A stretch of DNA of 64,000 nucleotides. It comes from a bacterium (GTDB lineage: Bacteria > Hinthialibacterota > Hinthialibacteria > Hinthialibacterales > Hinthialibacteraceae). Of this stretch, positions 4,698 through 35,043 are shown one piece after another. Position 1 is the stretch's first letter, and every line of letters begins with the position of its first letter. The notes below the pieces were generated by a model. The model was not told the origin of the DNA. It did not search any database and was given only the letters and a program-made list of their open reading frames with translations. The stretch is taken from positions 96,001-160,000 of the forward strand of contig CAXXSM010000149.1 of assembly GCA_963663405.2 (NCBI GenBank), given 5' to 3'. Made by a program: the position numbers and the translations under genes.

Positions 4698-7388
4698 TTA
4701 ATAAAGCGGCCAATTGCCAATGGGAGTATCTAACTGCATCAATTCGATGACAGCCCATCCCGTTTCGTCGTTTTTATAGGCGTCTGTGATCACGCCGTAA
4801 GCGTTCATGTGCCAATAAGCATAAAATCCATCAGAGGGATCGATCATTTTGAAATCAAAACCGATTATATTGCGGTCGGGTGGATCCAGCGCGACTGATT
4901 TATCTACGATGAATTCCACTACATAACCAGACATATCATCTTTGATGCGCGCTCCATAGTTCATATAGACGCCATTTGTCGTGTAATAAAAACCATCTCC
5001 TTCGATCGGAGTCGCTCCGTTGGGAACGGAACCATCGCCATAGTAGCCATGTCCATCAACGATAACTCCAATCCCAAATCCATACTGGTCTGCTTCTTTT
5101 CGGGTTAAACGTGAAAAATTGCCATCTAAATAAAGAACTGCTGAATCATTATTCCATCCTGTGCTTTGGTCGACAATAATATTAGGATCCAATACATCGG
5201 ATGCGATATAAATGAAATCCTGGTCATGAAGTAGATAGAGAACCGTATGCTGTACTTCAGGTGGATTTGTGTTGCCTGTGAGATGAACGCCAGGAGGTTC
5301 GCCGAATGGATTGTTCGCCGGATCTGGCACATAATTATCAAACATCTCTGTGTAAGCTTGGTCATATTCTCCATCACTGATTAAACCATCAAGAGTAATA
5401 TTGGCGTTTTCAACGAATGGCACACTGAAGATTATTGGTTGAATTTCATAATCACCAGCAATAGGGATTTCATCACCTGATGAATCAACGCTTGTTCCAT
5501 CGAACAATAAGCAAACTTTTTCAAAGCCACTAGCAGCCATATATTCAACATCATAGGACATTTGAGCGCTGCCGCTAAGATCGGATAGGGTCCATTCAAT
5601 CAAATCATCGGTTATAGAGAATTCACCATTGGTGACTGAAATATTCGTTGGAGTCACACCATCAGGTATGATTTCTTTAATGACTCCATTTATGGGAGAA
5701 TCTCCTGAAGAAACAGCATTGAGAATAATGTTTTCAATCACGCCATTTTCTGATGAATCATAATATGATACTGGAATTTCACGTGAAACATATAGATCAT
5801 ATTGAATGATTTCTACATCCGTGAAATCAGCAAAGCTGACATAATCCGGACCATTCCATGAAGTGACGCCAAGACCTACATAAACAGGATCTACTAAATT
5901 AAGTATATGGGTTTTAGCCAATTCTGTTTTTTCACCAGTTGAATAGTCCATGTAATAAACAGATACTACATCCCCTACTCGAAGGATTTCGATATCCCCG
6001 CCATGAACATCCACGGAAACATTTCCTACATTGTCCGCTTCTGTATCCGCCACTTTTTTTCTGGATTGCATTCGTAAATTATTGTTAGAAAGAAGTTGAG
6101 CGGAAGTATATACAGCGTCTGGCTCTAAGGAATCCCGGATAAACAATCCGGCGCGGGCATTGGCGCCGTCTCCAGATGCGAAATCTAAAAGTACATTGGC
6201 TTTCAACCGGAAGGGACCATTCATCTCATTAAATAGAAAATACATGTTGTCCGTACTCTCGATGCTTCCCCCTCCTGCGCTTAACTCATATCTACCATTT
6301 TCATATATGGGATCCAATCCTTGCAAGTCGGCGTTCCCAAGGAGTATTTGATGTTCAAAATCTCCCAAACCACCGGGTAACACGGCTTTTGTAAAATCGC
6401 CTAATATGGGAAGTTCACCGATTGTTCCGTATATACTCACCTGTTGATTGGAAATTATATCGACATTTTGAGGAATTAATTCGTAACTGACAGTAGTCAT
6501 TGAATCTGTCAAATTCCAAGTAATGGATGAGTCTGATAGAACACCACCATCACTTATATTCGATGTATCCCACCCATCGGGGATCATTTCTGTCAAAGTA
6601 GAGGAGGCTGGATTCGCAATATCGATGGATATTAGCGAAGGTTTTCCATTTTGGAATACTTCATCTTCGATCGTGCGCCATGCGATTGGAGATTGGAATT
6701 CATCGATAATGACATCCGTAATTTCTCCCACAGCTAAGAAATCGTCTTGTGAGTGACTGGTTATAGCGAATCCATAGGCTAATGTTTCTTCCATAGGCAA
6801 TACCATGGAATGACCTAACATCCAATTTTGACCATCGGTGGAAAATTCTGCAAATAACCAATCTTTTTCCGCCACCCGAGTAAGACGAAGCCACATCGAA
6901 CCACCATCAAGTGGAACAATATTTCCATCCTGATCTTGGAAGCGAGTGCGATCCACGCCAGGTGTTCCATCTAATTCCATACGCCATTGTGCGCTGGAGT
7001 ACTCCCATGTGCCTTTAGCCAAGGCGCCATAATACACTCCACCCGGTTCTTGGGGATGCTGTCGAATGATCGGACCGAATTTTGTCCAAGCTTCCGCTCC
7101 AGGATCGTTCCAAGTTACTTTTCCTGAAATGAAGTAACTCCCACTTCTTTCAGTGTAAGCAAAGAATCCTTCATCCTGGTTGTTCCAAATGTCACGGCCA
7201 TTTCCATAAATTGTGTAAATCGCGTCACGGCCAGAACCTTCAACAGTGATTTCTCCATCCGTTTTGTTTGTGTTTTCTTCCAATGTCCAATCTGCGGATT
7301 GGTCGAATAATCCAACGGCTCCGGAATTTTGGATAAAAATGAATAGTGCCAATAAAACAGTAGTGAAAAACAGTGATAGATATTTCAT
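4698..7388 (-). CDS. Large secreted acidic multidomain protein (two ConA/DUF1349-like modules, Ig-like spacers, C-terminal CBM9/DOMON-like module) ending in W-tail TPIGNWPLY
   Basis: Signal peptide; repeated GLFDQSADW..YTIYGNGRDIW..DEGFFAY / LGDFEHQ..YELSAGG..DNMYFLF modules; ITLDGLISDGEY..YLLHDQDFIYIA..D..LYLDG (CBM9-like). Domain names are by motif recall only. Confidence 0.75.
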   Translation of the reverse strand: MKYLSLFFTTVLLALFIFIQNSGAVGLFDQSADWTLEENTNKTDGEITVEGSGRDAIYTIYGNGRDIWNNQDEGFFAYTERSGSYFISGKVTWNDPGAEAWTKFGPIIRQHPQEPGGVYYGALAKGTWEYSSAQWRMELDGTPGVDRTRFQDQDGNIVPLDGGSMWLRLTRVAEKDWLFAEFSTDGQNWMLGHSMVLPMEETLAYGFAITSHSQDDFLAVGEITDVIIDEFQSPIAWRTIEDEVFQNGKPSLISIDIANPASSTLTEMIPDGWDTSNISDGGVLSDSSITWNLTDSMTTVSYELIPQNVDIISNQQVSIYGTIGELPILGDFTKAVLPGGLGDFEHQILLGNADLQGLDPIYENGRYELSAGGGSIESTDNMYFLFNEMNGPFRLKANVLLDFASGDGANARAGLFIRDSLEPDAVYTSAQLLSNNNLRMQSRKKVADTEADNVGNVSVDVHGGDIEILRVGDVVSVYYMDYSTGEKTELAKTHILNLVDPVYVGLGVTSWNGPDYVSFADFTDVEIIQYDLYVSREIPVSYYDSSENGVIENIILNAVSSGDSPINGVIKEIIPDGVTPTNISVTNGEFSITDDLIEWTLSDLSGSAQMSYDVEYMAASGFEKVCLLFDGTSVDSSGDEIPIAGDYEIQPIIFSVPFVENANITLDGLISDGEYDQAYTEMFDNYVPDPANNPFGEPPGVHLTGNTNPPEVQHTVLYLLHDQDFIYIASDVLDPNIIVDQSTGWNNDSAVLYLDGNFSRLTRKEADQYGFGIGVIVDGHGYYGDGSVPNGATPIEGDGFYYTTNGVYMNYGARIKDDMSGYVVEFIVDKSVALDPPDRNIIGFDFKMIDPSDGFYAYWHMNAYGVITDAYKNDETGWAVIELMQLDTPIGNWPLY

Positions 7389-7440
7389 CAGTAATCATTC
7401 CTCCTTAGTGGTCATGATTATACGAAGAACTGAATATAAG

Positions 7441-7548: not shown

Positions 7549-7581
7549 AAATAGAATATCTCATAAAGAGGTGATTTTCAA

Positions 7582-8235
7582 ATGGGGATTATTAAAAATG
7601 GATTCACGTTAATTGAATTGTTAATCGTCGTTGCGATTATAGGTATTTTGGCGGCCATTGCTGTTCCCAATTTTATGAATGCGCAGGTTCGGGCCAAAAT
7701 AGCCAGATCTCAAGCGGATATGCGTTCGATCGGAACGGCGATTGAGTCATTTCGCATTGATAATGGCGCTTTATTGGTGGATTTTTATGATGAACAAGAT
7801 ACTGCGGCAATACAACGTTTACAAAAATGGGGATTATGTTCTGTTAACAATTTTGATGACGCCGTTAGGAATCAACGTTGCATATATGCTAATTTAACTT
7901 CTCCTGTAGCTTTTATTTCTGCAATACCTGATGATCCTTTTTTTGGTAAAATTAGCAACAATGTGACGGATCGTTTAATAGAGGCGTTTGCGGGTACTTA
8001 TATTTATTATGATAATGAAGCAGCCATCCCTGGAGATGACCATTATGTTCCGCTGTTGAGCGGTGATAATGGTAAGCCCTTCAATGTTAATCCTTTAGGA
8101 TTGAATCAATGGGTATTGTTGGGAATTGGTCCTGATTCGAGTATTGGCGACACAGATCTCAACAGAAGGGGAATCCCTTACGATGCGACAAATGGTCTTC
8201 GAAGTGAAGGCGATTTGATGACGAGAAGCGGGTGA
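7582..8235 (+). CDS. Prepilin-type N-terminal cleavage/methylation protein (GspG/pseudopilin-like), paralog 1
   Basis: KNG|FTLIELLIVVAIIGILAAIAVPNF class III signal peptide; LTSPVAFI..IPDDPF; GPD; YDATNGLRSEGDL. Confidence 0.88.
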   Translation: MGIIKNGFTLIELLIVVAIIGILAAIAVPNFMNAQVRAKIARSQADMRSIGTAIESFRIDNGALLVDFYDEQDTAAIQRLQKWGLCSVNNFDDAVRNQRCIYANLTSPVAFISAIPDDPFFGKISNNVTDRLIEAFAGTYIYYDNEAAIPGDDHYVPLLSGDNGKPFNVNPLGLNQWVLLGIGPDSSIGDTDLNRRGIPYDATNGLRSEGDLMTRSG

Positions 8236-8402: not shown

Positions 8403-8417
8403 TTGTCTGATAATATG
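8403..8417 (+). promoter_or_regulatory. Third copy of the putative GntR operator, upstream of the regulator gene (autoregulation)
   Basis: TTGTCTGATAATATG is identical over 15 bp to 7532-7546. Confidence 0.65.
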
Positions 8418-8450: not shown

Positions 8451-9209
8451 ATGTTCCAAGAATTGAAAAGAGAGAATCTGTCTAAGACTCTTGTTCGCGC
8501 ATTAAGCAAGTATATTTTAGAGAAAAATCTAAAACCGGGAGACAGGCTACCTACTGAGAAAGAATTATCCACGAGTTTTCAAGTTGGAAGAAGCGTAGTG
8601 CGTGAAGCATTGAAAGCATTGGAGATTATTGGATTAATCGTGTGCCGACCAGGTGTGGGAGCGGTTCTTTCGTCTGAGGGAGTCGATCCTTTCTTGCTGC
8701 CATTCGTTTTTGGATTTGTTCTTGAAGAATCCAAATTGAAAAGTTTATGCGAATTGCGATTAATCTTTGAACAAGGCGCCGCGCGATTGGCATGTGTTAA
8801 TTGCACTCTGGAAGAACAATCCAAATTAAAGGAAATCGCAGAAAATTTGGATGAAATCAAAGAAGTAACGTATGAAAATCCAACCGACGAAAACCAAAGG
8901 AAACTTTGTGAGTTGGAGATCAGTTTTCACCAGAAATTGGTACTTGCGTCGAAAAATTCTGTTCTAATGAAATTTGGCGCGCTATGGGAGATATTCTTCC
9001 TACATGCGTTGGAAACAGGTGATCTTGTTCGAGCGTCAAAAGCGGGACAGGAAAACCTTGTTACAAAGGTGAAACATACCGAAATCGTTGATGCGATATT
9101 AAAGAAGGAAGAAGATAAAGCCTCGGAACTGATCAAAATCCATCTGGTATACTGGCTGAAAAATTTAGCCTCTGTATCGAAAGAATCTTTGATTAAACTG
9201 ACTGGGTGA
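8451..9209 (+). CDS. GntR family (FadR/FCD) transcriptional regulator
   Basis: LKPGDRLPTEKELSTSFQVGRSVVREALKALE winged HTH; ELRLIFE and FHQKLVLASKN FCD motifs. Confidence 0.93.
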   Translation: MFQELKRENLSKTLVRALSKYILEKNLKPGDRLPTEKELSTSFQVGRSVVREALKALEIIGLIVCRPGVGAVLSSEGVDPFLLPFVFGFVLEESKLKSLCELRLIFEQGAARLACVNCTLEEQSKLKEIAENLDEIKEVTYENPTDENQRKLCELEISFHQKLVLASKNSVLMKFGALWEIFFLHALETGDLVRASKAGQENLVTKVKHTEIVDAILKKEEDKASELIKIHLVYWLKNLASVSKESLIKLTG

Positions 9210-9311
9210 CAATTTGTTATTACTGATGTATTAAACGATTCATTTTTTGATCTTAAACATATCTGGAATAGAGTTGTTTATTAGTAATTGGTAAGCCATC
9301 TGAAGTGATAG

Positions 9312-9425
9312 ATTCCTCTCCCAAGCCTGGGGGAGGTTAGCTGAGGGTTGATTCATCGATGTTCAACCCCCCTCTAACTCCCTCCAATAACAGGCGCTCG
9401 CGCCGGAGCATTAAGGGGGGAGAAT
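9312..9425. repeat. Intergenic imperfect palindromic (REP-like) element
   Basis: Inner arms GGAGGTTAGCTGAGGGTTGA and TCAACCCCCCTCTAACTCC; outer arms ATTCCTCTCCC and GGGGAGAAT. Confidence 0.5.
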
Positions 9426-9521
9426 TAGCTCAGCGACGCCTCGTAAATTGATTGTTGATATCTAATTATTTCATGTGACTGATATGATACAAAGTAACAA
9501 TCCAAATAAAAGAAGGTCATA

Positions 9522-10229
9522 ATGTCGAATACAAACTATAAACACGCTCCTTTAGAACTGGACTATGATGTAGTAAGCATAAATGAGAGATTCAGAAAAT
9601 TATATACGGGTTTGGTTTACGATGCTTGCGAACACTTTGGTTTACCGTGCACGGCAATGGAGAGTGGAATCTATCCTTTGATTCATACAATGAAAGTCGC
9701 AGGACCTGCATTCACGGTTCATTGTATATCCACGCCCAACCGAAATGAGGAGCTTCATGATATACGTCTTGGAATGTTGAAAAGCATGACGCCGGGTTGT
9801 ATCCAAATTCGGGACACACAAAACAACCAGAATTGCGGCCAGTTTGGTGAAATCAGCGCGACTGCCGCCCGTGCCGCTGGATGCGCTGGAGCTGTGATTG
9901 ATGGCAGTACGCGGGATAGCAATCACCTGATTGATATGGATTTTCCCACCTTTTGCCGGTTTCGAAATCCAGTCGAAGCGTTCGGACGGTTTATGGCTGT
10001 TGACTATCAGATTCCTATTTATGTTAAAGGAATTGACGGCCAGTTGATCGTTCACCCAGGAGATTACATCATTGGTGATAACGATGGGGTTGTTATTATT
10101 CCAAAGGATCACACTCTTCAAGTGTTGGAACAGGCCGAAACCTGGAAACAATCTGAATCCCAAAGCCGTGAAGCCATGGGAAATGGGATTGATCCCTTCG
10201 AAGTTTATGCAAAGTACGGGCGTTTTTAA
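9522..10229 (+). CDS. RraA-family / HMG-CHA aldolase-like protein
   Basis: KVAGPAFTV, FGEISATAA..AGCAGAVIDGSTRD, VHPGDYIIGDNDGVVIIP. Confidence 0.88.
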   Translation: MSNTNYKHAPLELDYDVVSINERFRKLYTGLVYDACEHFGLPCTAMESGIYPLIHTMKVAGPAFTVHCISTPNRNEELHDIRLGMLKSMTPGCIQIRDTQNNQNCGQFGEISATAARAAGCAGAVIDGSTRDSNHLIDMDFPTFCRFRNPVEAFGRFMAVDYQIPIYVKGIDGQLIVHPGDYIIGDNDGVVIIPKDHTLQVLEQAETWKQSESQSREAMGNGIDPFEVYAKYGRF

Positions 10230-10297
10230 CACATATACTTGCTCTTTCTTTTTTATCAAAAGAGAAAAGTATCTATCGACTTACAAGTAAGAATTTT

Positions 10298-11566
10298 ATG
10301 GGGGGAACTTACAAAATGACAAAGAAACATTTAATTCCCTATCAATGGGAAATGATAATTCTATTATGGTTTGCCTATTTTTTTAATCAAGGCGATCGTC
10401 AAATTTATAATGTGGTTTTGCCGTTAATCAAAACGGATTTACTATTGAGTGATGTACAATTGGGATTGGTTGTCACGATATTCACTCTCTGTTATGCCGT
10501 CCTGGTTCCTATTGCTGGCTATATTGGTGATGTTTATCGTCGAAAATGGGTTGTTTTTGTAAGTTTGCTCGTTTGGAGCACTGCCACCTTGTTTACTGGA
10601 ATCAGCACTGGAATCGTGCTCTTAATACTTTTCCGCGGTATAGCGACAGGAGGAGGAGAAGCGTTTTATTATCCGGCCGCCAACTCTCTAATCGGACAAT
10701 ATCATCATAAAACCCGGGCTCTCGCGATGTCCATACATCAAACTTCCCTTTATGCGGGAATTGTGGCCAGTGGATTTATCGCAGGATATATCGGAGAACA
10801 TTTTGGCTGGCGCATGGCGTTTTATCTCTTTGGGGTATTGGGAATACTTTTGGCTGGCGTCATTTATTTCAGACTAGAAGACACACCGCAACTCAATCAC
10901 GACCAAACAAACAGCGACTTGGACAACGAGCGGATTCCCATTTCATCGGTTCTAAAAAGCATTGCCTGCAAACCGACCGCGTTTATGCTGTGTATGGCTT
11001 TTGGTGGGATGGTCTTCGTTAACATCGGTTTCATGACCTGGATGCCGACATATCTTCATGAAGATTTTTCCCGTTCTCTAACCATGGCGGGTTTCGATTC
11101 CACTTTCTACCATTATTTATTTGCTTTTTTCGGTGTCTTGTTAGGCGGACAATTCTCCGATTACTTTGCCCAAAAACGACGGACCATCCGCTTGGAAACC
11201 GAATGTTTAGGTTTGTTATTAGGCGCGCCGTTTATCTATCTGATGGGCGCCACAGAAAACATGTTTCTATGTTATTTCGCCATGGCCGCATTCGGATTGT
11301 TTCGTGGAATCTATGATTCCAATCTTTTTGCCGCGTTGTTCGATGTGATAGAACCGAGAGTAAGGGCGTCTGCGGTTGGGATTATGATTGCTTTTGCCTT
11401 TATTGTAGGAGCGTTCGCTCCATTGATCCTTGGGTGGGTCAAAGAGAACTGGGGCTTGGCGATTGGAATATCCTCTTTGGGATATGTGTATTTCATCTCA
11501 GCATTAGTAATTTTATTCGCTCAGTTTTTCTTCTTCAAAAAAGATTATTACGAAGAGAAGGATTAA
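10298..11566 (+). CDS. MFS transporter (ACS/sugar-acid-like), paralog A; start may be ATG 10316
   Basis: NQGDRQ, AGYIGDVYRRK motif A, about 12 hydrophobic segments. Confidence 0.92.
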   Translation: MGGTYKMTKKHLIPYQWEMIILLWFAYFFNQGDRQIYNVVLPLIKTDLLLSDVQLGLVVTIFTLCYAVLVPIAGYIGDVYRRKWVVFVSLLVWSTATLFTGISTGIVLLILFRGIATGGGEAFYYPAANSLIGQYHHKTRALAMSIHQTSLYAGIVASGFIAGYIGEHFGWRMAFYLFGVLGILLAGVIYFRLEDTPQLNHDQTNSDLDNERIPISSVLKSIACKPTAFMLCMAFGGMVFVNIGFMTWMPTYLHEDFSRSLTMAGFDSTFYHYLFAFFGVLLGGQFSDYFAQKRRTIRLETECLGLLLGAPFIYLMGATENMFLCYFAMAAFGLFRGIYDSNLFAALFDVIEPRVRASAVGIMIAFAFIVGAFAPLILGWVKENWGLAIGISSLGYVYFISALVILFAQFFFFKKDYYEEKD

Positions 11567-11596
11567 TCTAAAAAAACAAGAATAGGAGATAGAAAA

Positions 11597-12964
11597 ATGA
11601 AATTGCTTTTTGTATTCAGGCCAATTTGGATTTTCGTTTTTGTATCAATCGTCATGTCTTCGTTTTCACTTCCTTGCTCCGCTGAATTATCCGAGCAATA
11701 TAAGGCTCTCTGGAACGATCTAGAGTTAAATCAAACAATAGAAAATAATATCGACGCCTATAGGAAGGGGCATCTTGCCTTGAAATTTGTTACGGAGGAT
11801 GGGCGCCCCGTTACAGACGCTAAGATAAAGGCTATACAGACAGGTCACGAATTCCTGTTCGGTTGTAATCTTTTCTTTTTAAAGGGATTCGATTCAGATG
11901 AGATGAATAAGAAATATGAAGAGGCATTCGTCAATTTATTCAACTTTGCCACAATGCCTTTTTACTGGTCAGATTTGGAGCCTGAACCAGGCAAAATTCG
12001 TTTCCAGAAAAATTCTCCTCCCATTTTTCGCCGTCCACCTCCCGATCTGCTGCTTGAGTTCGGATTCAAGCATAATTTAACATTAAAAGGCCATCCGTTG
12101 ATTTGGCACGCCTGGTATCCCGATTGGCTTCCTAACGATCAGGCCCAAGTAGAACGATATGCTCAAAAACGCTTTTCAGAAATCGCGGCGCGTTATAGCC
12201 AACATATTAAAATTTGGGATGTGGTGAATGAATCATTAGTTCGGCCGATGAATGTAACGTTACCTCGGGATTATGTTCCTTGGTCATTTAAGCAAGCCGA
12301 AAAAGTATTTCCGGATGACAACGTTTTAATGATCAACGAAGTAACATCTGTAAGCCATCAGTACAATAAATCGGAAACCAAGTATTATCTTCAAATTAAA
12401 AACCTGATCGCGCAAAACATACGGCTCAATGGGATTGGCTTTCAATTTCATATTTTCTCCGAAAATGGTATGAAAAATGTCGCCGCTGGGAAAGATTTCA
12501 CTCCGAAAAACATGATGCAAGTGTATGACCTCTATCGTGAATTCGATTTACCTCTCTACATAACCGAAATCACGATACCCAGTTTAGGAGAAACGGGCGA
12601 TGAAGAGCAGGCGGAAGTCGTAAAGAACTTCTATCGTTTATGGTTTAGCACGCCCAATATGGCGGGTATAACGTGGTGGAATCTTGGCGATGGAACGGCG
12701 GTTCCAAACGAAAATAAATGGTTGGGCGGTCTGATGGACAAAGATCTGAATCCTAAAAATTCCTATCAAGTCTTGGATCAATTAATCAATCATGAATGGA
12801 AAACCGAATATGAAGGACAAACCAACGATAAAGGGCGTGCGATTTTCTGTGGTTTTTATGGATCCTACTCCATCACCGTGGAAACCAGCGAAGGCGCACA
12901 AGAATTTATAATCAACCACTCCAAAGGAAAAAGCGGACATCATACAATTATCATTGAGGATTGA
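11597..12964 (+). CDS. Secreted GH10 family glycoside hydrolase (endo-xylanase-like)
   Basis: Signal peptide; KGHPLIWH, WDVVNE (acid/base), GIGFQFH, YITEI (nucleophile), GITWW. Confidence 0.88.
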   Translation: MKLLFVFRPIWIFVFVSIVMSSFSLPCSAELSEQYKALWNDLELNQTIENNIDAYRKGHLALKFVTEDGRPVTDAKIKAIQTGHEFLFGCNLFFLKGFDSDEMNKKYEEAFVNLFNFATMPFYWSDLEPEPGKIRFQKNSPPIFRRPPPDLLLEFGFKHNLTLKGHPLIWHAWYPDWLPNDQAQVERYAQKRFSEIAARYSQHIKIWDVVNESLVRPMNVTLPRDYVPWSFKQAEKVFPDDNVLMINEVTSVSHQYNKSETKYYLQIKNLIAQNIRLNGIGFQFHIFSENGMKNVAAGKDFTPKNMMQVYDLYREFDLPLYITEITIPSLGETGDEEQAEVVKNFYRLWFSTPNMAGITWWNLGDGTAVPNENKWLGGLMDKDLNPKNSYQVLDQLINHEWKTEYEGQTNDKGRAIFCGFYGSYSITVETSEGAQEFIINHSKGKSGHHTIIIED

Positions 12965-14157
12965 TCATGAAAATTGTCGATTTACGTGTCAGAACGGTGG
13001 CTATCCCTACCAATGCAATGCTGCGTCACAATACCGGTGTCCATCCGGGATATCTGATGCGCACCATTTTAGAATTGATAACAGACGAAGGAATTGTTGG
13101 ATTGGGGGAAGTGGGCGGAGGCGATCAACGGAGCGCTTTACTTCGTTTAAAGCCTCGCCTGGTTGGTATGAATCCTTTTCATCTGGAAGAAATTAAACTG
13201 AAAGTTCTTCGCAGTATATACTATCTTTCCAATGCGCGTCTCTATGGAGCGATCGAGATTGCCTGTTTAGATATACAAGGCAAAGCGTGCGGGATACCTA
13301 TGCATCAATTGATCGGAGGGAAACTGCGCGATGAAATCCCTATGATCGCGTACCTTTTCTGGAGATACGATCGTCCTGGCGGCGGGGATGACACATGCGC
13401 GGAAGATTTGGCTGACTATTGTGTTGAATTGCATGAAACGCTGGGCGTTACGGCTATGAAATTAAAAGCCGGTGTCCTTGATCCGATGGAGGAAGCGAGG
13501 GTACTTGAACTTTGCCATGAGCGATTGGGAGACACATTTGGACTGCGCATAGATCCGAATGGAGTATGGTCCGTCGCCACCGCCACGCAAGTGGGCCGCC
13601 GGCTGGAAGGTCTCAATTTACAGTACTACGAAGATCCCGCTTGGGGCTTAGAAGGAATGCGCTCTGTTCGCGAGCAGGTTCGCATTCCATTGGCTACGAA
13701 TATGTATCCTAACAAGTTTGATGATTTAGGACCCGCCATCCGATTGAACGGAATCGATATCATTCTGACTGATTTACATTATTGGGAAGGGCCTCGCGGA
13801 GTGAAAGATTTATGCGCAGTGTGCCGTACATTTAATCTTGGCGTCGCGATGCATTCGGGCGCGGAATTTGGAGTGGAACTCGCGGCGATGCTTCATACCG
13901 CCTCAACGATTCCGACCATGAACATGCCTGGTGACGCGCATTACCATTATTTGGAAGATGATATCATCGCAGGCGGAAAAATGCCTTATGTCAATGGATC
14001 GATTCGAGTGCCGGAAGGCGCTGGACTTGGTGTGGAATTGGATGAAGAAAAAATGGAAAAGTATGAGCGTTTTTATGAAGAAAAAGGTGATTATTACGCC
14101 CGGTTTCATCAAGACCCAAGACGCCCTGAATGGTATCCTGCTGTGGGAGGCTTATGA
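12961..14157 (+). CDS. Enolase-superfamily acid-sugar dehydratase (glucarate dehydratase-like)
   Basis: GLGE, AIEIACLDIQGK, KLKAG, RIDPNG, EDP, ATNM, MHS, VPEGAGLGVELD. Confidence 0.85.
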   Translation: MIMKIVDLRVRTVAIPTNAMLRHNTGVHPGYLMRTILELITDEGIVGLGEVGGGDQRSALLRLKPRLVGMNPFHLEEIKLKVLRSIYYLSNARLYGAIEIACLDIQGKACGIPMHQLIGGKLRDEIPMIAYLFWRYDRPGGGDDTCAEDLADYCVELHETLGVTAMKLKAGVLDPMEEARVLELCHERLGDTFGLRIDPNGVWSVATATQVGRRLEGLNLQYYEDPAWGLEGMRSVREQVRIPLATNMYPNKFDDLGPAIRLNGIDIILTDLHYWEGPRGVKDLCAVCRTFNLGVAMHSGAEFGVELAAMLHTASTIPTMNMPGDAHYHYLEDDIIAGGKMPYVNGSIRVPEGAGLGVELDEEKMEKYERFYEEKGDYYARFHQDPRRPEWYPAVGGL

Positions 14158-14160
14158 TAA

Positions 14161-17263: not shown

Positions 17264-19294
17264 TCAATACAAACTCCATTCACGAACGGGTGTTTCTTCG
17301 GTATAGATTTTGACGTTATCGATGAAATAATCACCACCGCTATTGGTGACATTCACTAAAAAGAGATTGTCAATACTGGATAATTGGTTGGTCTGCCAGA
17401 ACATCGCATCCGTTTCATATTGAACTAAAGTTGAAAAGGTGAGATCCCCTTCGTCTCCCTGCCAGAATTCATACGTGTTGGTTTTTGGATCAGCGATGAT
17501 TCGAATGGGGTACCAATGTTCGACTCCACTGTCCGGATCAGACGCTAGAATGGGAGTGGTTCTTAATTCTCCCGCATCTTCCACTCCATCCTTGTTGGTA
17601 TCTCCAATAAAGTTCCATTGAGCGCCATCGTAATAATTCGCCACGCCCGGTTCCAATTGTCCCCAAACCACATGCCCTCCTAACGTGGAATCTTGACGAA
17701 TGATCACTTGACAGGCTCGCGCTCCAGCGGCGCCGGTAACGGTTGACGCCATCAGAAAATCAATCGTTACGGGTTCGGTTTGACTGCCGAAATCGATAGA
17801 CAAGTTATCGACGCCGCTTCTAACCTTCAATGATTTATCGCCCACGGCGATAATCTCTTCTAATTCTCCTCCACCCGCGACCCGCTCGCTAGCTTCCGCT
17901 CCCCAAGCCCCTTCAAAATCCTGCTCGATAACGGTCTGACCGGATTTCGTAACAATGGATACGTTATCAACAAAGAAGTCACCCATCCCTCGTTCTTTGT
18001 TTTGAAATTGAATTCCATCAATGGAATCCAATAATCGCCAAAACCATAAATCGTCCCCATATTGAGTGAGATTTTCAAAATTCAAGTCGTTGGCAGGTCC
18101 CATAAAAAAATCAAAACTATGATTCGCAATATCAAGGTCCAATTGAACCGGGTACCATTTGGCCGATGTGGGATCTTCTGGATCCGTTATTTCAATAAGC
18201 GGTGGCCATGTTTCATCCCCGTCTTCCACAAGATTTTGATTGGTATCCCCGATTTGACGCCACGCTGTGCCATCGTAAAAGTTACTCGATCCCGGTTCGG
18301 TCTCTCCCCAACAAATGAACGTGACGATATTGGAGCCGGTATTCCCACCGTTCAACGTCCACACTTGCGCCGCGCGCTGATTTTTATAACCGCCCAAGGT
18401 TGTAAATGAAATTAGAAAACGAAACGTGAAATTTTCCAGGATTGGATCGAAATACGCGTAAGCGCCATCGATATCTTTGAGAAGCATCAATGAATGCTCA
18501 CCGATCGCAATCAATGAATCGTCACGTTCGGGAATGCCTTCAAAATCATTTTCGAATACCACGGCGCCGTCATGAGATATTTCCAAATTGTCTATAAAAT
18601 CACCGCTTGATGATGGATTAAAATAGAAACGATTGATTTCGGGAGGGAAATCCACGGTATAGAGGTCTTCGCCGTATAATTTCAGTGTGGAAAAAGACAT
18701 ATCGTTGGGGGCGCCTTGCCAATAATCGAAAATGGCTTCATCAATATTAATAACCAATTGTATAGGAATCCATTGCGCTTGATCGGGTTGATCCGGATCG
18801 GAGACCGGAAGAGCGGGAGGCCATTCCTCGCCATCATTTTCTATACCATCGAAGTTCGTATCCCCAATTTGCACCCAGCCGTCTAAATCCTGATACGCCG
18901 GTAATCCTTCGATCACATTACTCCATCGAATATCCGAAGCCACAATCGCGGTTTCTCCGGAAATTCCCTGGAGATAGACTCTTCCACCAGGGGAGTCTGG
19001 ATTCGAGGCGACAGTCGACGAAATCAAAAAACGTATGGTAATCGAACCGGAGACGGGAATAAAATCCTGACTATAATAGGTATTTCTCGAATATTCATCG
19101 ATCGCCAAGGCCGTCGGCGCGCGTTCCAATTCCGGTAGGGATTGAAATCCGGCTTGCGGACCTAACGAACTTAGATCATCGAAATCCTCTTCATATAAAA
19201 TATCAGTCTGCCCTGCGATCGCGCCGATGCTTGACAAAACACAACATACAAAAACGATACCCCATCTTTTTGTCTTGGTATACTTTTTCATCAT
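17264..19294 (-). CDS. Secreted acidic protein with three ~210-aa tandem ConA-like repeats, ending in W-tail TPVREWSLY
   Basis: Signal peptide; three copies of W.(Q/F)IGDTN..G/L.E..E...DP..W.P(I/V) and (F/Y)(I/F)(I/V)DN. Confidence 0.78.
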   Translation of the reverse strand: MMKKYTKTKRWGIVFVCCVLSSIGAIAGQTDILYEEDFDDLSSLGPQAGFQSLPELERAPTALAIDEYSRNTYYSQDFIPVSGSITIRFLISSTVASNPDSPGGRVYLQGISGETAIVASDIRWSNVIEGLPAYQDLDGWVQIGDTNFDGIENDGEEWPPALPVSDPDQPDQAQWIPIQLVINIDEAIFDYWQGAPNDMSFSTLKLYGEDLYTVDFPPEINRFYFNPSSSGDFIDNLEISHDGAVVFENDFEGIPERDDSLIAIGEHSLMLLKDIDGAYAYFDPILENFTFRFLISFTTLGGYKNQRAAQVWTLNGGNTGSNIVTFICWGETEPGSSNFYDGTAWRQIGDTNQNLVEDGDETWPPLIEITDPEDPTSAKWYPVQLDLDIANHSFDFFMGPANDLNFENLTQYGDDLWFWRLLDSIDGIQFQNKERGMGDFFVDNVSIVTKSGQTVIEQDFEGAWGAEASERVAGGGELEEIIAVGDKSLKVRSGVDNLSIDFGSQTEPVTIDFLMASTVTGAAGARACQVIIRQDSTLGGHVVWGQLEPGVANYYDGAQWNFIGDTNKDGVEDAGELRTTPILASDPDSGVEHWYPIRIIADPKTNTYEFWQGDEGDLTFSTLVQYETDAMFWQTNQLSSIDNLFLVNVTNSGGDYFIDNVKIYTEETPVREWSLY

Positions 19295-19416: not shown

Positions 19417-20001
19417 TCAAGGACCAAAGCGATAAATATCCCCATCGCTGTTCAATCCATTGCTAGAGTCGAACCATTTCATAAAGTCGGATCCCCCCGC
19501 TCCCGGATCGGCTTCATAATCCCGATCCGGCGCAGCGCCCATCAGCACCCATCGCCCCCGCCGCTCTTGTTCTTCCGGCATATAAGCGAACCGGCGCGAT
19601 GAGAGTTTGATATTGTCCGTGGTTTCAGGATCCCATAGTGGATACGCGTTCGACATGTACGTATCATCGATATTGGTTCGAAACGGGTCCAAAGGAACAC
19701 TGTTCATATAACTGACCGGTGAGGTCATTTTTGCCAGTCTTCCATAACGCCAATCCCGTGTGCTCGAAGGAGCCGCCGGGGGATACATATTGTTGTCCAA
19801 TCGATACATTTCCAGCGCGCTCCCCAACGATCGCAGATCGGCTTCACAACGAGCGATAAGCGCCCGAACCCGCGCATTGATAAAATTGGGCACAGCAATG
19901 GCGGCCAGAATGCCAATGATCGCGACGACGATAAGCAATTCAATTAAGGTAAAACCGCGAAAAGGAGTTTTTTGATTGTTTGTCGATTTTTTTTCATTCA
20001 T
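19417..20001 (-). CDS. Prepilin-type N-terminal cleavage/methylation protein, paralog 2
   Basis: RG|FTLIELLIVVAIIGILAAIAVPNF; Y.LDNN.YPP; MTSPVSYM..VPLDPF; APD; FDSSNGLNSDGDI. Confidence 0.88.
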   Translation of the reverse strand: MNEKKSTNNQKTPFRGFTLIELLIVVAIIGILAAIAVPNFINARVRALIARCEADLRSLGSALEMYRLDNNMYPPAAPSSTRDWRYGRLAKMTSPVSYMNSVPLDPFRTNIDDTYMSNAYPLWDPETTDNIKLSSRRFAYMPEEQERRGRWVLMGAAPDRDYEADPGAGGSDFMKWFDSSNGLNSDGDIYRFGP

Positions 20002-21675: not shown

Positions 21676-21702
21676 TTTTCGAATAGTAAGGACAAAATTG
21701 TT

Positions 21703-23171: not shown

Positions 23172-23201
23172 TTATCCAAGTTATAAAGGAATTATGAAGT
23201 A

Positions 23202-24415: not shown

Positions 24416-26056
24416 TTGAAAGGAAAATGCATGATGTTATCAATTAAACAAATAACTTGCTTACTGATATTTTCTTGTTTTACTATGATCGCTACTCTGT
24501 CTGTGACAAGTGGTGACTTGATAGCAACTGATGAAAATGTAAAGAAAAACATTTCTCCAATTGCGCTGATTCAAGAGAATAATCCTGCGCAAGGAAAAGA
24601 GATTGACTCATCGTCTAATAGTCAAGTTAAAGTTACCAGCATATCCCGAACAATTGACGCTTCTAAATATTCTAATCGATTTCCCGATCTAGCCGCGTAC
24701 CGGAATACTTCAATACAAAAAGCGCCTGCGCCTGCGCTTGCTGAATTAAGCGCGAACGAGTTTGGCATAGCGAAAATCACCCGGTGTTGGTTAAACCTCG
24801 ATGAAATGTGGGATTATCGAACGCGAGAATATAACTACAACTATACAATTGGAGTTCACAAGTACGATGATGTCTCGGAGAAACACGAGGAATCTTGGGG
24901 ATGGGTCACAGAGACCAATGTGCCATTTTATGATTACTTGAGCGCATTCAGTAAGTATAGTGATGAAATCATGTTGACCATCCGGCGATATGAACGGGAT
25001 ATTTTGGATGGGAAACTTGACGTTACGATGAATGACTGGAAAAGAATTTTTAAAAACGCTGTAATTCATTATAAAGGAATTTGTTCCAATCTTCGTTATA
25101 TTGAAGTATGCAACGAATATGCTATTAAAGGTTTTATCGGATGCACGGCGGATGAATACTATCAGTTTTACAAACTCGCATATGAAGCCGTTAATGAAGC
25201 CAACGCAGAGATGAACTTAAAGGACGATAACCGAATTCTGGTGGGAGGTCCTGTGGTGACCGGCGACATTATTAAGAAACTAAATCTCTTTTTTGAAAAT
25301 TATAGCAGGGACACATCGGCAAATAAGAAAATGGATTTTGTTTCGTGGCATGAATATAGCAAAAGCTATGACGCAATCGCTCATCGAGAAAAACAGGTTC
25401 GAGAGATGATGGATCAACATGGTCTCAAAGAAGACATCCCCTTATTTATCAGCGAACACGATCCCTATCATCCTCCGGCGGGGAGTAGAGAGTACAATCT
25501 TATCAATGGCGCGGGATTAGTTAAGTCACTTTATTTTACGAATTATTTCAGTCCCGGAATTAAAATCATGCCTTGGGTACAATATCACAACGCTGAGATT
25601 CAAACACGGTTCATGTGGTTTGGTGGTCCCAACGAACCGGATACTAAAACTAAAGAATTGCGAATGCTGCCGGCTGGTTGCTCAATGAAGTTTCTTAGCA
25701 TGCACAAAGATTGGGAAATAGAAGTTGACAATGCGCTCGATAAAGATGAGATTGTGTTGGCTTCGATCCAAAATGACGGAATCGTCGTTCATGTGGTCAA
25801 TTATGACAAGCCGCGAGCTGTACAAATCCGGCTGGACAATATCCCAAAATCGTTTTTAAATTTGAAGGATGGAAAAATAAAAGCAGTCAAATATCTCATC
25901 GATCAGCAGCACTGTAACTGCGTGGCCAATCCCGACTATTCTGGCGGAATTGAAAAGGTAGGAGATGAGTGGATAGAATTGAACGGAGGTTCAATCACAC
26001 TCTCACACTCCAAACTTACAAAAAACGGAATACTGTTGTGGGAATTGATCCCATGA
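24416..26056 (+). CDS. Secreted clan-A glycoside hydrolase (GH39-like)
   Basis: Signal peptide; YIEVCNEY (acid/base), VGGP, DFVSWHEY, LFISEH (nucleophile). Confidence 0.7.
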   Translation: MKGKCMMLSIKQITCLLIFSCFTMIATLSVTSGDLIATDENVKKNISPIALIQENNPAQGKEIDSSSNSQVKVTSISRTIDASKYSNRFPDLAAYRNTSIQKAPAPALAELSANEFGIAKITRCWLNLDEMWDYRTREYNYNYTIGVHKYDDVSEKHEESWGWVTETNVPFYDYLSAFSKYSDEIMLTIRRYERDILDGKLDVTMNDWKRIFKNAVIHYKGICSNLRYIEVCNEYAIKGFIGCTADEYYQFYKLAYEAVNEANAEMNLKDDNRILVGGPVVTGDIIKKLNLFFENYSRDTSANKKMDFVSWHEYSKSYDAIAHREKQVREMMDQHGLKEDIPLFISEHDPYHPPAGSREYNLINGAGLVKSLYFTNYFSPGIKIMPWVQYHNAEIQTRFMWFGGPNEPDTKTKELRMLPAGCSMKFLSMHKDWEIEVDNALDKDEIVLASIQNDGIVVHVVNYDKPRAVQIRLDNIPKSFLNLKDGKIKAVKYLIDQQHCNCVANPDYSGGIEKVGDEWIELNGGSITLSHSKLTKNGILLWELIP

Positions 26057-27671: not shown

Positions 27672-29069
27672 ATGAAAAACAGAACCAAAGTTATTACGCT
27701 TTTATCCATTTTGTCTTTCAGCGTCACCTCTGTGTCACTCACGCAGGAGTCAAATAGTACAAATACCATCGGCATTTTTGAGGATCATCATGATTGGGTG
27801 GCTGGCATGGCTCCCGGTGAGGCCGCATACGATCCAAATACGGGCGAGTATATGATACAAGGATCGAGCGCTCTCTATATTGATGAAGAAAATCGTGAAA
27901 TTGGTATGGGTGGACACGTCGCCTGTTCATGGATTTGTAATGATAGCAATTTTGAGTTAGAAGCCCATGTCACAGCGGAATTTGTGTCCAGTGGGAGTAT
28001 TTTTTCCAGCGCGGTTCTTTTTGTCAGTGAATATGATCCACCGGAAACGATTGATTTATACAACTGTGGCGCGGCGTTTGGAATTGGAGTTACTTCCAAA
28101 TTCAACAGTCTTATCTGTTATTACCAGGAAAAGAGAGGCCCCTATGATATGTCGGTTATTGATGATGAAGTGTATCACGAGGGGCGTCTCAAGTTAGTTA
28201 AAGATGGAAACACTATACAAGCCTTCTTCTTTGATCCATTTTTGGAAGAATGGGTGTTATACGGCGAACACGAAATGGAATTTAATACTCCTGAATTGAC
28301 TGTTGGTTTAGTCGCTAGTTCAGGGAATTCTGTCAATTTATACACTATTGGACGTTTTACTGAGGTAAAGTTGACGATCGATGACACCCCCGGTGGATCG
28401 GATATTCCATCATCGGTTTCAGAACCAGTCGGTATGTTCGAAAACCATCGGGATGTGTTTCCCGGCCTCATGGCCGCCGGTGAAACCAGTTATGATCCAG
28501 ACACTGACGAATATGTAATTATTGGATCATCTTACAATAATAATTATGGGCATATCGCCTATTCAACATTCAATAGTCAGGATGATTTCATATTCGAAGG
28601 TGAAATCCTTTCAGAGCATATCGACAGTGACGATGAATGGGGTGGAGCCAGCTTATACATTCAAGAAGGGGATCCTGCCAGCACGCTCGATGACATCGAG
28701 AATTACAGCGCTTTTTATTGTGTCGGCATAGCTGCCAAAACTCAACTCATTTCAGTGTGGTATCAAGAGATTCAAGGGCCTTACGCTGTTTCGTATCCGG
28801 CGAATATCGGCTTGGAATGCAATCACGATGGACGTATAAAAATTGTAAAAGAGGGTGAGATTTTCAGTTCCTATTTTTTTGATCCGGATTTGGATGATTG
28901 GATTTTGCGAGATGAACGGATTCTTCTATTTTCGGAACCCACGATGGTGATTGGTATTTTTGTAGGTTCTAGTATCGACAATAAATACTCAAAGGGAACA
29001 TTTAGAAATTTAAAACTCACTGTTAATGGTATACAAAGCGGTGTTGAAGATTGGACAATGTATAGATAA
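27672..29069 (+). CDS. Secreted acidic protein with two tandem ConA/DUF1349-like repeats, ending in W-tail SGVEDWTMYR
   Basis: Signal peptide; repeats IGIFEDHHD..GEAAYDPNTGEY.IQGS and VGMFENHRD..GETSYDPDTDEY.IIGS; HEGRLKLVKDG / HDGRIKIVKEG; FFDP. Confidence 0.78.
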   Translation: MKNRTKVITLLSILSFSVTSVSLTQESNSTNTIGIFEDHHDWVAGMAPGEAAYDPNTGEYMIQGSSALYIDEENREIGMGGHVACSWICNDSNFELEAHVTAEFVSSGSIFSSAVLFVSEYDPPETIDLYNCGAAFGIGVTSKFNSLICYYQEKRGPYDMSVIDDEVYHEGRLKLVKDGNTIQAFFFDPFLEEWVLYGEHEMEFNTPELTVGLVASSGNSVNLYTIGRFTEVKLTIDDTPGGSDIPSSVSEPVGMFENHRDVFPGLMAAGETSYDPDTDEYVIIGSSYNNNYGHIAYSTFNSQDDFIFEGEILSEHIDSDDEWGGASLYIQEGDPASTLDDIENYSAFYCVGIAAKTQLISVWYQEIQGPYAVSYPANIGLECNHDGRIKIVKEGEIFSSYFFDPDLDDWILRDERILLFSEPTMVIGIFVGSSIDNKYSKGTFRNLKLTVNGIQSGVEDWTMYR

Positions 29070-32925: not shown

Positions 32926-33159
32926 TAATAGAACACGTACTACGCTTTTGCATCGGCGTACTATGCTCGTTAACTGTTTCAATTTAATAACTTGAGATTC
33001 ATAGATATCCGGGATATCCCATTATTACAACAAATCTCCTTTTCGGACAATCAAAAAGTTCAAGTTTTTCATCATTTTGGTCATTGACATGTGAAAAGAA
33101 TAATGAGATTTTGAAATTGGCGAAACAATTAATACGCCAATTTTATTCAATGGAGGAGA

Positions 33160-35043
33160 ATGATGAAAAGAGTATTGAAGTATTGTCCAATTGCGCTCCT
33201 GTTATTATGCCCGTTGATTTCCATGGGACAGACTGAAATGTTCTACGATGATTTCAGTGGCGACCTTGCAAAGTGGCAAGAACTGGGAAACGTGGGAACC
33301 CCCCAAGTGGCGGATGGTGAACTACGCCTCGAATGGGGTTACGCGCCGAACTGGTTTGTCACTAATGATACATTTAATTTTGGTTCGGAAGCGTTGCAAT
33401 TCGATTTCACCTTTGTGGAAGGTGGATACCAGGCAACAGCCAACTACAAACAAAACTATATCCAACCACTGTTGGGCGCCAATGATTTAGAGTCGGATAA
33501 CGGAGCCGTGCGCGCCCGCTTTAGCGCCGACTTCTTCGAATTGGAACGCTACAACGCCGATGGTACTTGGAGCGATATTCCATTTACAAGCGATGAGGAA
33601 AACCTCACTGTCGATCCTGGTGACCGGGTACGCTTTGAAATTGACTCAACCGGTCAAAAAGGTGTGATGTATGTTAATGGAGAATCCGCAATCGCGTTTG
33701 AAACCAACGAAATCCTATCCGGTAGTATCGGATTCCGGGTTGTGACAGATTCTCGAAACGTGATCGTAGACGATGTGTATTTTGCGCAAATTGACGGCGG
33801 CGGCGCTGAAACCGTCATTTTAGACGATTCATTTGAACGCGCTGATGTGGGAGCCGATTGGGTAAATGAAACCCTCGCCGATGACAGCAGCCCCGGTCCC
33901 TTGCTCGCGTTTATTGAAAACGGGCAGTTGCATCTCACCAGTGACGGTTCCGGTGACGCGTGGTTACGCATTGACGCCGACGTGACCTTCGAAGGCGGCA
34001 CAACCGTATTTGAATACACATTTGTTGACTATATCGGAGACAACACCTACAGACCTTCTCCGGTGTTAGGTGTAAAAGCCTATGAATCCGGTATAACCAG
34101 TGGAGTGATCTTGATCGATAACGGTTCCGGCGTTAATTATGGTTTAGTTGATGGAGGATGGGCTCAGGGACAAGCCTCCGAAATCGGCGGGAACCGCAAC
34201 GGTATGAGAGTCCAAATCGTCGTCAATCCCGGCGGCCAATCCGGCCACATAGTCCGCGACGGCATAGAAGGCATCAACTTCTTCAACATCGGACCAACCT
34301 TTTCCGGCGGATTTGCGTTCCGTCTCATTGCCGGCCGGGATATTACTCTCGATGATTTATTTATCTATGCCCTTGAACCGGATGGCGGTAAAACCACATT
34401 GTATGAGGACAACTATAACCGTGATGAGTTAGGGGATGATTGGATTTTGGAAGCGCTCACCCCAGACGCCCCTCCAGGCGCCGTCTTCATTGAAATGGGA
34501 GACTTTGATGGAGACGGTGATAATGAAGTATTATTCGATCATGATGGATCGCTGGATGATGAGTGGATTCGCCTGCAATCCGACCTTCCATTTGGTGGAG
34601 ATAAACCGGTCGTGATTGAAATGACGGTTGTGGAATTCATCGACTATGCGTCGGTCGTTATCGGCACAAACGAATTCAATTCAGAATTGTATGGCCCCAT
34701 TTTGTTGGATAATATGGAATCACCATGGGTAATGGATACACGCGGTGGAAATGTATGGGTTCGTCCCGGCCCGGTCGGAGGATCAAACATTTCCTTAAAA
34801 GTAAATGCTGATGGCCGCAGCGGTTCGTTTCTAGTAAATGATGTTATCATCCGAGATTGGGAATTCGCCGAAGGCGAAGCGCCCATCCCGGTTGGCGCGG
34901 TTGGATTTGAAGATCCATTCGATTCTCCTCACACAAATACTGTCCCGCCGGCTGAACCGGATACGGTCGCCACAGCGGTTTATGATGATGTCCGCGTGAC
35001 GGCGGTTGAAGATACATCGGTCAACAATTGGATGATTCATTAA
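33160..35043 (+). CDS. Secreted acidic protein with three ConA/DUF1080-like repeats, ending in W-tail TSVNNWMIH
   Basis: RBS GGAGG; signal peptide; repeat starts FYDDFS / LDDSFE / YEDNYN and repeat ends GSIGFR..VDDV / GGFAFR..LDDL / GAVGFE..YDDV. Confidence 0.8.
   Translation: MMKRVLKYCPIALLLLCPLISMGQTEMFYDDFSGDLAKWQELGNVGTPQVADGELRLEWGYAPNWFVTNDTFNFGSEALQFDFTFVEGGYQATANYKQNYIQPLLGANDLESDNGAVRARFSADFFELERYNADGTWSDIPFTSDEENLTVDPGDRVRFEIDSTGQKGVMYVNGESAIAFETNEILSGSIGFRVVTDSRNVIVDDVYFAQIDGGGAETVILDDSFERADVGADWVNETLADDSSPGPLLAFIENGQLHLTSDGSGDAWLRIDADVTFEGGTTVFEYTFVDYIGDNTYRPSPVLGVKAYESGITSGVILIDNGSGVNYGLVDGGWAQGQASEIGGNRNGMRVQIVVNPGGQSGHIVRDGIEGINFFNIGPTFSGGFAFRLIAGRDITLDDLFIYALEPDGGKTTLYEDNYNRDELGDDWILEALTPDAPPGAVFIEMGDFDGDGDNEVLFDHDGSLDDEWIRLQSDLPFGGDKPVVIEMTVVEFIDYASVVIGTNEFNSELYGPILLDNMESPWVMDTRGGNVWVRPGPVGGSNISLKVNADGRSGSFLVNDVIIRDWEFAEGEAPIPVGAVGFEDPFDSPHTNTVPPAEPDTVATAVYDDVRVTAVEDTSVNNWMIH

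Follow-up and report, generated by a model that had tools for sequence, protein, structure and literature searches.

C-terminal sorting tags on exported proteins are known from several bacterial systems. In the LPXTG/sortase, PEP-CTERM/exosortase, GlyGly-CTERM/rhombosortase and MYXO-CTERM/myxosortase systems, a short C-terminal motif is carried by many unrelated signal-peptide proteins of a lineage. These signals are tripartite, with a transmembrane helix and then a basic cluster coming after the motif, and are cleaved by a membrane-bound sorting enzyme. The type A sorting domain of type IX secretion (T9SS; TIGR04183), found in Bacteroidota and their relatives, also lies at the extreme C-terminus of unrelated Sec-exported enzymes and adhesins and is restricted to certain lineages. 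It is a folded beta-sandwich of about 70-100 residues. A tail of 9-10 residues that has the position, the varied carriers and the lineage restriction of these signals is described here. It was noticed in a stretch of 64,000 nucleotides (G000:C149:96001-160000, hereafter the window) from the draft genome of a member of the Hinthialibacterota (8.44 Mb, 170 contigs, 82% complete), in which four genes for exported proteins end in it (Table 1). An earlier note on this DNA, made from its letters alone, had proposed these endings as a protein-sorting signal. Translation recovered all four open reading frames (ORFs) where the note had placed them, with the endings as written, and the signal peptides it had assigned to them agree with four signal-peptide-like N-termini.

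The tripartite signals were found by the same comparative logic as the one followed here and are carried by choice-of-anchor families, as stated in the available part of their description (bioRxiv 10.1101/2023.06.07.544157). Compared with these signals, the tail proteins stop three residues after a Trp (one or two residues later in 34 of 177) and have no hydrophobic segment. The absence of a transmembrane helix and of a basic tail had already been remarked in the earlier note, and it holds for the proteins at large, which end 3-5 residues past the invariant Trp. Unlike the T9SS domain, the tail is predicted to be coil. It belongs to the C-terminal sorting tags on exported proteins with neither of the known architectures, membrane helix or folded domain, and its receptor is therefore likely to be of a new type. 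A conceptual parallel is found in eukaryotes. Peroxisomal targeting signal 1, a C-terminal SKL read by the TPR domain of PEX5, addresses folded proteins to a translocon. It has in common with the tail the use of a few free C-terminal residues as the address of folded proteins, while its sequence and its receptor are unrelated.

A motif confined to protein ends

Six-frame translation of the genome yielded 12,670 ORFs with a length of 100 aa or more, divided into 6,628 non-overlapping ORFs (2,394,635 residues) and 6,042 overlapping 'shadow' ORFs. Both the ORF calls and the signal-peptide test used below are heuristic and come from crude scripts of our own. The strict motif [TS]-x-[VIL]-x-x-W-x-[LMIV]-[YHFW] occurs 128 times in the non-overlapping ORFs: 83 times at the exact C-terminus, 15 times with one to three residues after it and 30 times internally. 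About 0.08 exact ends would be expected from the internal rate, so that the excess is roughly thousand-fold, and the 30 internal occurrences in 2.39 million positions are close to chance level. No shadow ORF ends in the strict motif (0/6,042). The looser ending W-x-[LMIV]-[YHF] is found in 143 kept ORFs versus four shadow ORFs. In 34 further kept ORFs it is followed by one or two extra residues, which brings the total to 177. Rather than being as frequent inside proteins as at their ends, which the earlier note had named as grounds for abandoning its proposal, the motif is found almost only at the very C-terminus, and across the genome it extends far beyond the four proteins of the window.

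Aligned on the Trp, the 177 tails have T, S or V at position -5, S, P or A at -4, V at -3 (120/177) and D or N at -1, followed by E, S or A at +1, L at +2 (111) and Y, F or H at +3 (107, 39 and 31, respectively). A linker-like stretch with many E, P, G and T residues occupies positions -9 to -6, and no conservation is seen further upstream. The consensus is [E/P/G]-x-[T/S/V]-[S/P/A]-V-x-[D/N]-W-x-L-[Y/F/H]-COOH. The DNA encoding the tails varies at synonymous sites and both TAA and TGA are used as stops. Selection therefore acts on the peptide and not on a nucleic-acid element.

Carrier proteins and their export

A regular expression covering the consensus retrieved 145 tail proteins from the genome. 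Without their last 14 residues they form 65 BLAST clusters, 45 of which are singletons, and similarity reaching the C-terminal 30 residues divides them into 81 clusters. The 64 representatives match 61 Pfam families, including CBM9, Laminin_G_3, FG-GAP, CotH, LTD, beta-helix, cohesin (in 2 of the 64) and the WD40, NHL and PD40 propellers, as well as SnoaL, sulfatase, subtilase (S8 peptidase), esterase, GH5 and LRR. With 81 C-terminal contexts and 61 Pfam families, the variety goes well past the 'at least three domain types' counted ahead of the tail in the earlier note. The full-length representatives match 63 NCBIfam families; choice-of-anchor X and choice-of-anchor Q are matched once each, and ScyD/E-type proteins are matched as well. 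No CTERM model is present among the 25 most frequent of these 63 families, and a search with the final 40 residues of 10 tail proteins, at E values up to 10, brought no credible match in NCBIfam or Pfam. The model search thus recovered no named model for the tail, and the earlier note had known of none.

A signal-peptide-like N-terminus was detected by the crude hydrophobic-stretch test in 114/143 proteins with an exact end (80%), against 2,487 of all 6,628 ORFs (37.5%), an enrichment in Sec signal peptides that the earlier note had suggested looking for. The test failed for 31/145 tail proteins, several of which are obvious fragments or have weak signal peptides; one is a sulfatase with a Tat-like RR motif. 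The lipobox is depleted in tail proteins (1/114 versus 165/2,277 of the other signal-peptide-like proteins, p=0.004). Among the 1,951 signal-peptide-like soluble proteins of the genome, 112 carry the tail.

Two other C-terminal elements were considered and rejected. The cargo of a type I secretion signal should have no N-terminal signal peptide, and about 80% of the tail proteins have one by the crude test. The WxL cell-wall-binding domain of Firmicutes is also C-terminal; it comprises roughly 150-200 residues with two WxL motifs. The tail offers a single W-x-L within ten residues, and the last 40 residues have no Pfam match.

The nature of the carriers also bears on whether the tail concerns location at all. 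Many of them act on or bind polysaccharides, as would be expected if the tail had a shared biochemical role unrelated to location, for instance in binding a common ligand or in oligomerisation. The carriers also include, however, LRR proteins, CotH kinases, propellers, SnoaL-like proteins and peptidases, and neither the strict end position nor the exchange with sorting domains reported below is expected of a ligand-binding motif, which makes such a role very improbable.

Structure of the tail

AlphaFold2 models were computed for the two families that allowed an alignment, the CBM9-like family (31 homologues) and an LRR family (14 paralogues). For the 896-aa window protein, the model of the last 240 residues has a mean pLDDT of 90 and a last strand at residues 223-226; residues 231-240, which comprise the tail, have a mean pLDDT of 63 and no strand. 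In a 337-aa protein of the 17-member LRR family of the genome (mean pLDDT 92.9), the last strand covers residues 315-320 and residues 331-337 are coil with a pLDDT of 58. The earlier note would have given up its proposal if the tail were an integral strand of a shared terminal domain. It is instead a low-confidence coil in two different folds, and these two models together with the varied preceding domains rule out that the tail is a strand of such a domain.

The models also bear on a possible mimicry of the C-terminal beta-signal of outer-membrane proteins, through which the tail would use BAM or TAM to reach the surface. In agreement with such mimicry, the tail ends in an aromatic residue or His (Y 107, F 39 and H 31 of 177), with hydrophobic residues close upstream. 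Nevertheless, the spacing of the conserved residues counted from the end (V -7, W -4, L -2, Y -1) lacks the alternation of a membrane strand, the cargo consists of soluble enzyme and binding domains and not of barrels, the tail is modelled as coil, and the BAM signal is universal in diderms while the motif is lineage-specific. Mimicry of this kind is hardly to be expected.

Exchange of C-terminal modules among homologues

The 240-residue CBM9-like end domain was compared by HMMER with 1.84 billion representatives, which gave 52 matches. The ending W-x-[LMIV]-[YHF] is present in 26 of the 52, with near variants in three more, and in 23 of the 31 homologues with E<=1e-10. Five distant homologues terminate in a type A sorting domain of the T9SS, with scores that exceed the TIGR04183 cut-off, and one ends right after the CBM9-like domain. 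In tail-negative Sumerlaeota, two homologues of one genome end in dockerin-like repeats and a third homologue has no add-on. The same position of this domain family is thus taken by a sorting domain, a docking module or the tail, depending on the lineage. Such exchange of modules is the defining behaviour of choice-of-anchor families.

The dockerin-like ends (L365 and L371, genome G120) each hold two repeats of the type GDADGDGS..N..D...FNWTLGN, which hints at a cohesin-dockerin type system in the lineage of that genome. Dockerins are, like the tail, C-terminal additions to varied polysaccharide-active proteins, and here they replace it in homologues from tail-negative Sumerlaeota. Unlike the calcium-binding dockerins, which have about 60-70 residues and two repeats, the tails lack such repeats and have no Pfam match.

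The dockerin-like repeats at the position of the tail bring up the main rival of a sorting signal, namely a tag for docking or retention once the protein has been exported. The protein would leave the periplasm through a different pathway, after which the tail would attach it non-covalently to a surface scaffold or an envelope polymer in the manner of dockerins and other wall-binding modules. The cohesin domains in 2/64 representatives, the two aromatic residues of the tail and the flexible linker ahead of it also suit such an anchor. On the other hand, ten residues are very few for a stable anchor, a conserved partner domain was not found, and the T9SS sorting domain that occupies the same position in other homologues is itself an export signal. 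An anchor is rated as rather unlikely.

Distribution among lineages

A degenerate 24-nt DNA pattern encoding V-x-[DN]-W-x-L-Y-stop gave 11 matches in the window's genome and one for a reversed control. It is present in 33/35 Hinthialibacterota (OLB16) genomes of the collection (one class, six families), with 0-1 control matches per genome, and the two unmatched genomes as well as one low-count genome still hold some tails or variants. An orthologue in genome G023 ends in ...SSVTEWPCY. In genome G028, all three matches to a loose pattern end in V-x-x-W-R-[LV]-Y, which may be a lineage-specific variant of the tail. In Sumerlaeota the 24-nt pattern is found in 39/75 genomes (three or more matches in 24 of them, up to 14) and not in the other 36, for two control matches in total. 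It is absent from 57 genomes of other phyla, including Poribacteria, Omnitrophota, Planctomycetota, Verrucomicrobiota, Kiritimatiellia, Lentisphaeraceae, Fibrobacteres, Bacteroidota, Acidobacteriota, Firmicutes and Proteobacteria.

A 30-nt pattern was scanned over 185,579 species genomes, for which about 139 chance matches were calculated. At least 107 stretches matched, and 80 of 107 were listed. Among the matches listed (80) are two loci of 'Candidatus Hinthialibacteria bacterium OLB16', eight in metagenome-assembled genomes (MAGs) labelled Omnitrophota, SURF_12 being one of these, 30 in MAGs labelled 'bacterium', 14 in MAGs labelled Candidatus Sumerlaeota and 26 single loci in unrelated taxa. 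Also among the matches listed, 13/15 in Sumerlaeota end long signal-peptide ORFs, the other two being cut by the edge of the locus, and so do 3/3 in OLB16 and SURF_12; 23/26 in unrelated taxa lie in frames of at most 39 aa. OLB16 and SURF_12 are members of phylum OLB16, i.e. Ca. Hinthialibacterota, 'formerly included in Ca. Omnitrophota' according to the available part of the source (PMC9324843). From these genome scans, the tail appears to be a lineage signature of the Hinthialibacterota and of about half of the Sumerlaeota. No published description of the motif was found in the literature searched; the supplements of PMC9324843, which possibly list secreted proteins, lay outside this search.

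Tail genes of the window and their pseudopilin neighbours

Three of the four tail genes of the window adjoin a gene of about 200 codons whose product has a prepilin N-terminal methylation motif (Table 1).

Table 1. Tail genes, tails and pseudopilin genes of the window (position 1 is the first letter of the window)
Feature	Position	Strand	Evidence
Gene of 896-aa exported protein, CBM9-like last domain, end TPIGNWPLY	4698..7388	-	ORF and translation
Tail TPIGNWPLY, final 9 codons ahead of stop	4701..4727	-	Translation; AlphaFold2 model
GspG-like pseudopilin paralogue, divergent neighbour of first tail gene (4698-7388)	7582..8235	+	N_methyl motif, partial GspG/PilA matches
Gene of 676-aa exported protein, three internal repeats, no Pfam family, end TPVREWSLY	17264..19294	-	ORF and Pfam scan
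Tail TPVREWSLY	17267..17293	-	Translation; conserved in both orthologues
GspG-like pseudopilin paralogue, 122 bp upstream of second tail gene (17264-19294), same strand	19417..20001	-	N_methyl motif, partial GspG/PilA matches
Gene of 465-aa exported protein, no Pfam family, end SGVEDWTMYR, one residue past aromatic	27672..29069	+	ORF and Pfam scan
Tail SGVEDWTMYR, minority class with 1-2 extra residues (34/177)	29037..29066	+	Translation
Gene of 627-aa exported protein, no Pfam family, end TSVNNWMIH	33160..35043	+	ORF and Pfam scan
Tail TSVNNWMIH	35014..35040	+	Translation
GspG-like pseudopilin paralogue, convergent neighbour of fourth tail gene (33160-35043)	35307..35894	-	N_methyl motif, partial GspG/PilA matches

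Genes of this GspG-like family number 102 in the genome by their N-terminal pattern and 145 by BLAST. A GspG-like gene is the immediate neighbour of 18/145 tail genes, versus 60/1,839 other signal-peptide genes (odds ratio 4.2, p=6e-6) and 109/4,542 remaining genes; in random sets of genes such neighbours numbered 4.2 on average and 12 at most. In 13 of the 18 pairs the two genes lie on the same strand, mostly 15-230 bp apart. In two other genera the gene of the 676-aa tail protein likewise follows a pseudopilin gene, across intergenic gaps of about 60 bp, and in Sumerlaeota loci a pseudopilin gene lies directly upstream, on the same strand, of 3/13 tail genes, two of these three being mutual orthologues. 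Other families of neighbours, such as response regulators, are in modest excess at most (up to about fourfold, on 3-14 genes each). Together with the matches to choice-of-anchor families, the linkage to pseudopilin genes fits a sorting or recognition tag. Adjacency to pilin-like genes would equally suit attachment to a fibre, and hence the docking tag discussed above.

The N-termini of the GspG-like paralogues are near-invariant (FTLIELLIVVAIIGILAAIAVPNF), a conserved SNG..S.GD motif lies close to their C-termini, and the paralogues amount to tens to more than 150 copies per genome across Hinthialibacterota and Sumerlaeota. Their copy number was considered as a co-distributed marker of the tail and rejected, as the copies do not follow the presence of tails in Sumerlaeota or in G023. 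A complex prediction combining the soluble part of the pseudopilin encoded at 19417-20001 with the last 137 residues of the protein encoded at 17264-19294 scored 0.00, from alignments of 5 and 3 rows, with an uncertain fold of the partner and no controls, and is given no weight either way.

Type IVb pili offer an analogy. The terminal peptides of the secreted proteins CofJ and TcpF bind the minor pilins CofB and TcpB. These pairs also involve a short flexible terminal peptide and a gene linked to pilin genes, and they go with a pilus-type export that by analogy may be proposed for the tail proteins. Unlike the CofJ and TcpF peptides, which are N-terminal and serve one cargo per system, the tail is C-terminal, for about 150 cargo proteins and about 100 pseudopilin paralogues.

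The four tail proteins of the window gave no match in the NCBIfam scan and almost none in the Pfam scan, the 896-aa protein having weak matches to CBM9_1, DUF1349 and LRR_adjacent. A public representative of this protein is identical over the last 240 residues but has 698 aa and starts inside the ORF. This public gene call is probably too short, since the 896-aa reading includes a signal peptide and has the length of the full-length homologues (about 900 aa), whose N-terminal signal peptides are alike. Two orthologues of the 676-aa protein, from two further genera, keep the tail, with the endings ...EETPVQEWYLY and ...EETPVELWQLY. The 465-aa protein has no relatives at E<=1e-5 in a word-indexed protein search and clusters by C-terminal context with five proteins of the same genome.

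The tail genes of the window are surrounded by genes for GntR/FCD regulators, MFS transporters, enolase-superfamily dehydratases, short-chain dehydrogenases/reductases (SDRs), GH10 and GH39-like enzymes, and a hybrid sensor kinase with a regulator, and their loci resemble units for the use of polysaccharides or sugar acids. Tail-protein genes and pseudopilin genes flank both of two paralogous sugar-acid utilisation units (8451-14916 and 20392-24371), each with a GntR/FCD regulator, an MFS transporter, an enolase-superfamily dehydratase and an SDR. A GH10 enzyme (11597-12964) with a signal peptide is encoded in the first unit as well. The translations of this enzyme and of the GH39-like protein (24416-26056) bear out the earlier note in that neither carries the tail. 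The exported GH39-like protein, on the plus strand, ends in ...GILLWELIP, with a W-E-L near the end that lies outside the consensus and resembles a decayed or variant tail. Elsewhere in the window, two transposase-like ORFs (59134-60300, plus strand, and 60938-61696, minus strand) have N-termini that recur nearly unchanged at C118:107422-108588 and C103:30304-31062, which suggests multi-copy insertion sequences.

Search for a machinery

At least six full-length secretin genes, plus fragments, are spread over the genome (G000 contigs C118, C109, C18, C29, C60, C23, C133 and C38), which implies several candidate type II, type IV pilus or Tad-like systems. The neighbourhoods of the secretin genes have no visible link to tail genes. 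TIGR04183 has no match in the window's genome and none in 31/35 Hinthialibacterota genomes, and 0-1 match per Sumerlaeota genome. A complementary distribution of the tail and the T9SS sorting domain in Sumerlaeota was considered and rejected, as the domain is nearly absent from tail-positive and tail-negative genomes alike.

PDZ domains read short C-terminal peptides with a hydrophobic or aromatic end. Ten PDZ proteins are encoded in the genome. Eight of them are annotated, as four HtrA-like proteases, two S41 peptidases, one M61 peptidase and one beta-helix-PDZ protein, and the remaining two look RseP- and BlaR1-type by eye. The beta-helix-PDZ protein (G000:C22:1011-2429), a right-handed beta-helix with a C-terminal PDZ domain, is encoded about 4 kb from a tail-bearing LRR gene. 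A 563-aa S41 peptidase, the only protease tested, was rejected as a dedicated enzyme, since its homologues are found in 68/75 Sumerlaeota genomes with similar scores in tail-positive and tail-negative ones.

The PDZ proteases are relevant to the possibility that the tail is a site for a periplasmic PDZ protease, either of the S41 C-terminal processing type or of the HtrA type, and serves propeptide maturation or quality control. The end of the tail would suit reading by a PDZ domain, and the genome has two S41 and four HtrA-like proteases with PDZ domains. Nevertheless, the tested S41 peptidase is equally well conserved with and without tails, such proteases are near-universal whereas the tail is found in two phyla, and the aromatic is not the last residue in 34/177 tails (143/177 end exactly there). 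There is moreover no obvious rationale for a degradation tag on 2% of the proteome and on many different enzymes. A protease site is considered improbable.

A candidate post-export sorting signal

The tail is probably a very short C-terminal protein-sorting signal that acts on folded proteins after export by Sec or Tat. This reading is founded on the strict end position, the modularity over at least 65 families, the restriction to exported non-lipoproteins, the flexibility, the exchange with other modules and the conservation across lineages. The sorting signal proposed in the earlier note is thereby upheld in part: terminal position, enrichment in signal peptides, absence of a shared domain and lineage spread speak for it. 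Beta-strand addition, outer-membrane translocation and pilus attachment, which the note had suggested, would be candidate mechanisms.

In the mechanism that may be proposed, tail proteins would be exported through their N-terminal signal peptide by Sec or Tat and would fold in the periplasm. The flexible tail, hanging off the last domain, would then be recognised by a dedicated putative receptor, which would hand the protein, in its folded state, onto the outer membrane or across it. As for the machine, a pseudopilin-based system resembling type II secretion is the foremost guess and the best lead, because tail genes are linked to GspG-like genes. The full proposal, a new outer-membrane secretion or surface-display pathway with a C-terminal address of 9-10 residues and a type II-like machine built with about 100 specialised pseudopilin paralogues, is tentative and is judged possible. 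In Vibrio, PDZ-dependent recognition of cargo by GspC is documented in the part of the source available (PMC12369372).

Several observations weigh against a sorting signal served by such a machine. The surveys of secretin, PDZ, S41 and T9SS sorting-domain genes identified no receptor, peptidase or translocon for the tail, and no GspC-like protein is found among the PDZ proteins annotated in the genome. Some Hinthialibacterota members (G023, G026 and G028) have few tails. Tail-negative Sumerlaeota genomes hold 41-130 pseudopilin copies and no tails, the copies being as numerous as in tail-positive genomes, and G023 has 161 copies for about two tails, so that the expansion of pseudopilins does not in itself follow the distribution of the tail. 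Finally, one or two residues follow the aromatic in 34/177 tails, so that a strictly terminal carboxylate is not always kept.

Significance

C-terminal sorting tags have earlier led to new envelope machineries, namely sortases, exosortases, rhombosortases and the T9SS. The present tag is carried by about 2% of the proteome (145-177 proteins) and about 6% of the exported soluble proteins of an 8.4-Mb genome specialised in polysaccharide breakdown, and it is common to two uncultured candidate phyla. Its presence in 39 and absence in 36 of the 75 Sumerlaeota genomes provide a ready phylogenetic profile for finding the receptor. The motif is a simple predictor of the set of secreted or surface enzymes in Hinthialibacterota and Sumerlaeota. 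It is also a candidate for a curated model, of which current annotation libraries have none. If the proposal is true, the tail would be the first signal of linear form to target proteins to a type II-like system, and bacteria would have in it a counterpart of the tripeptides that serve eukaryotic organelles as C-terminal signals.

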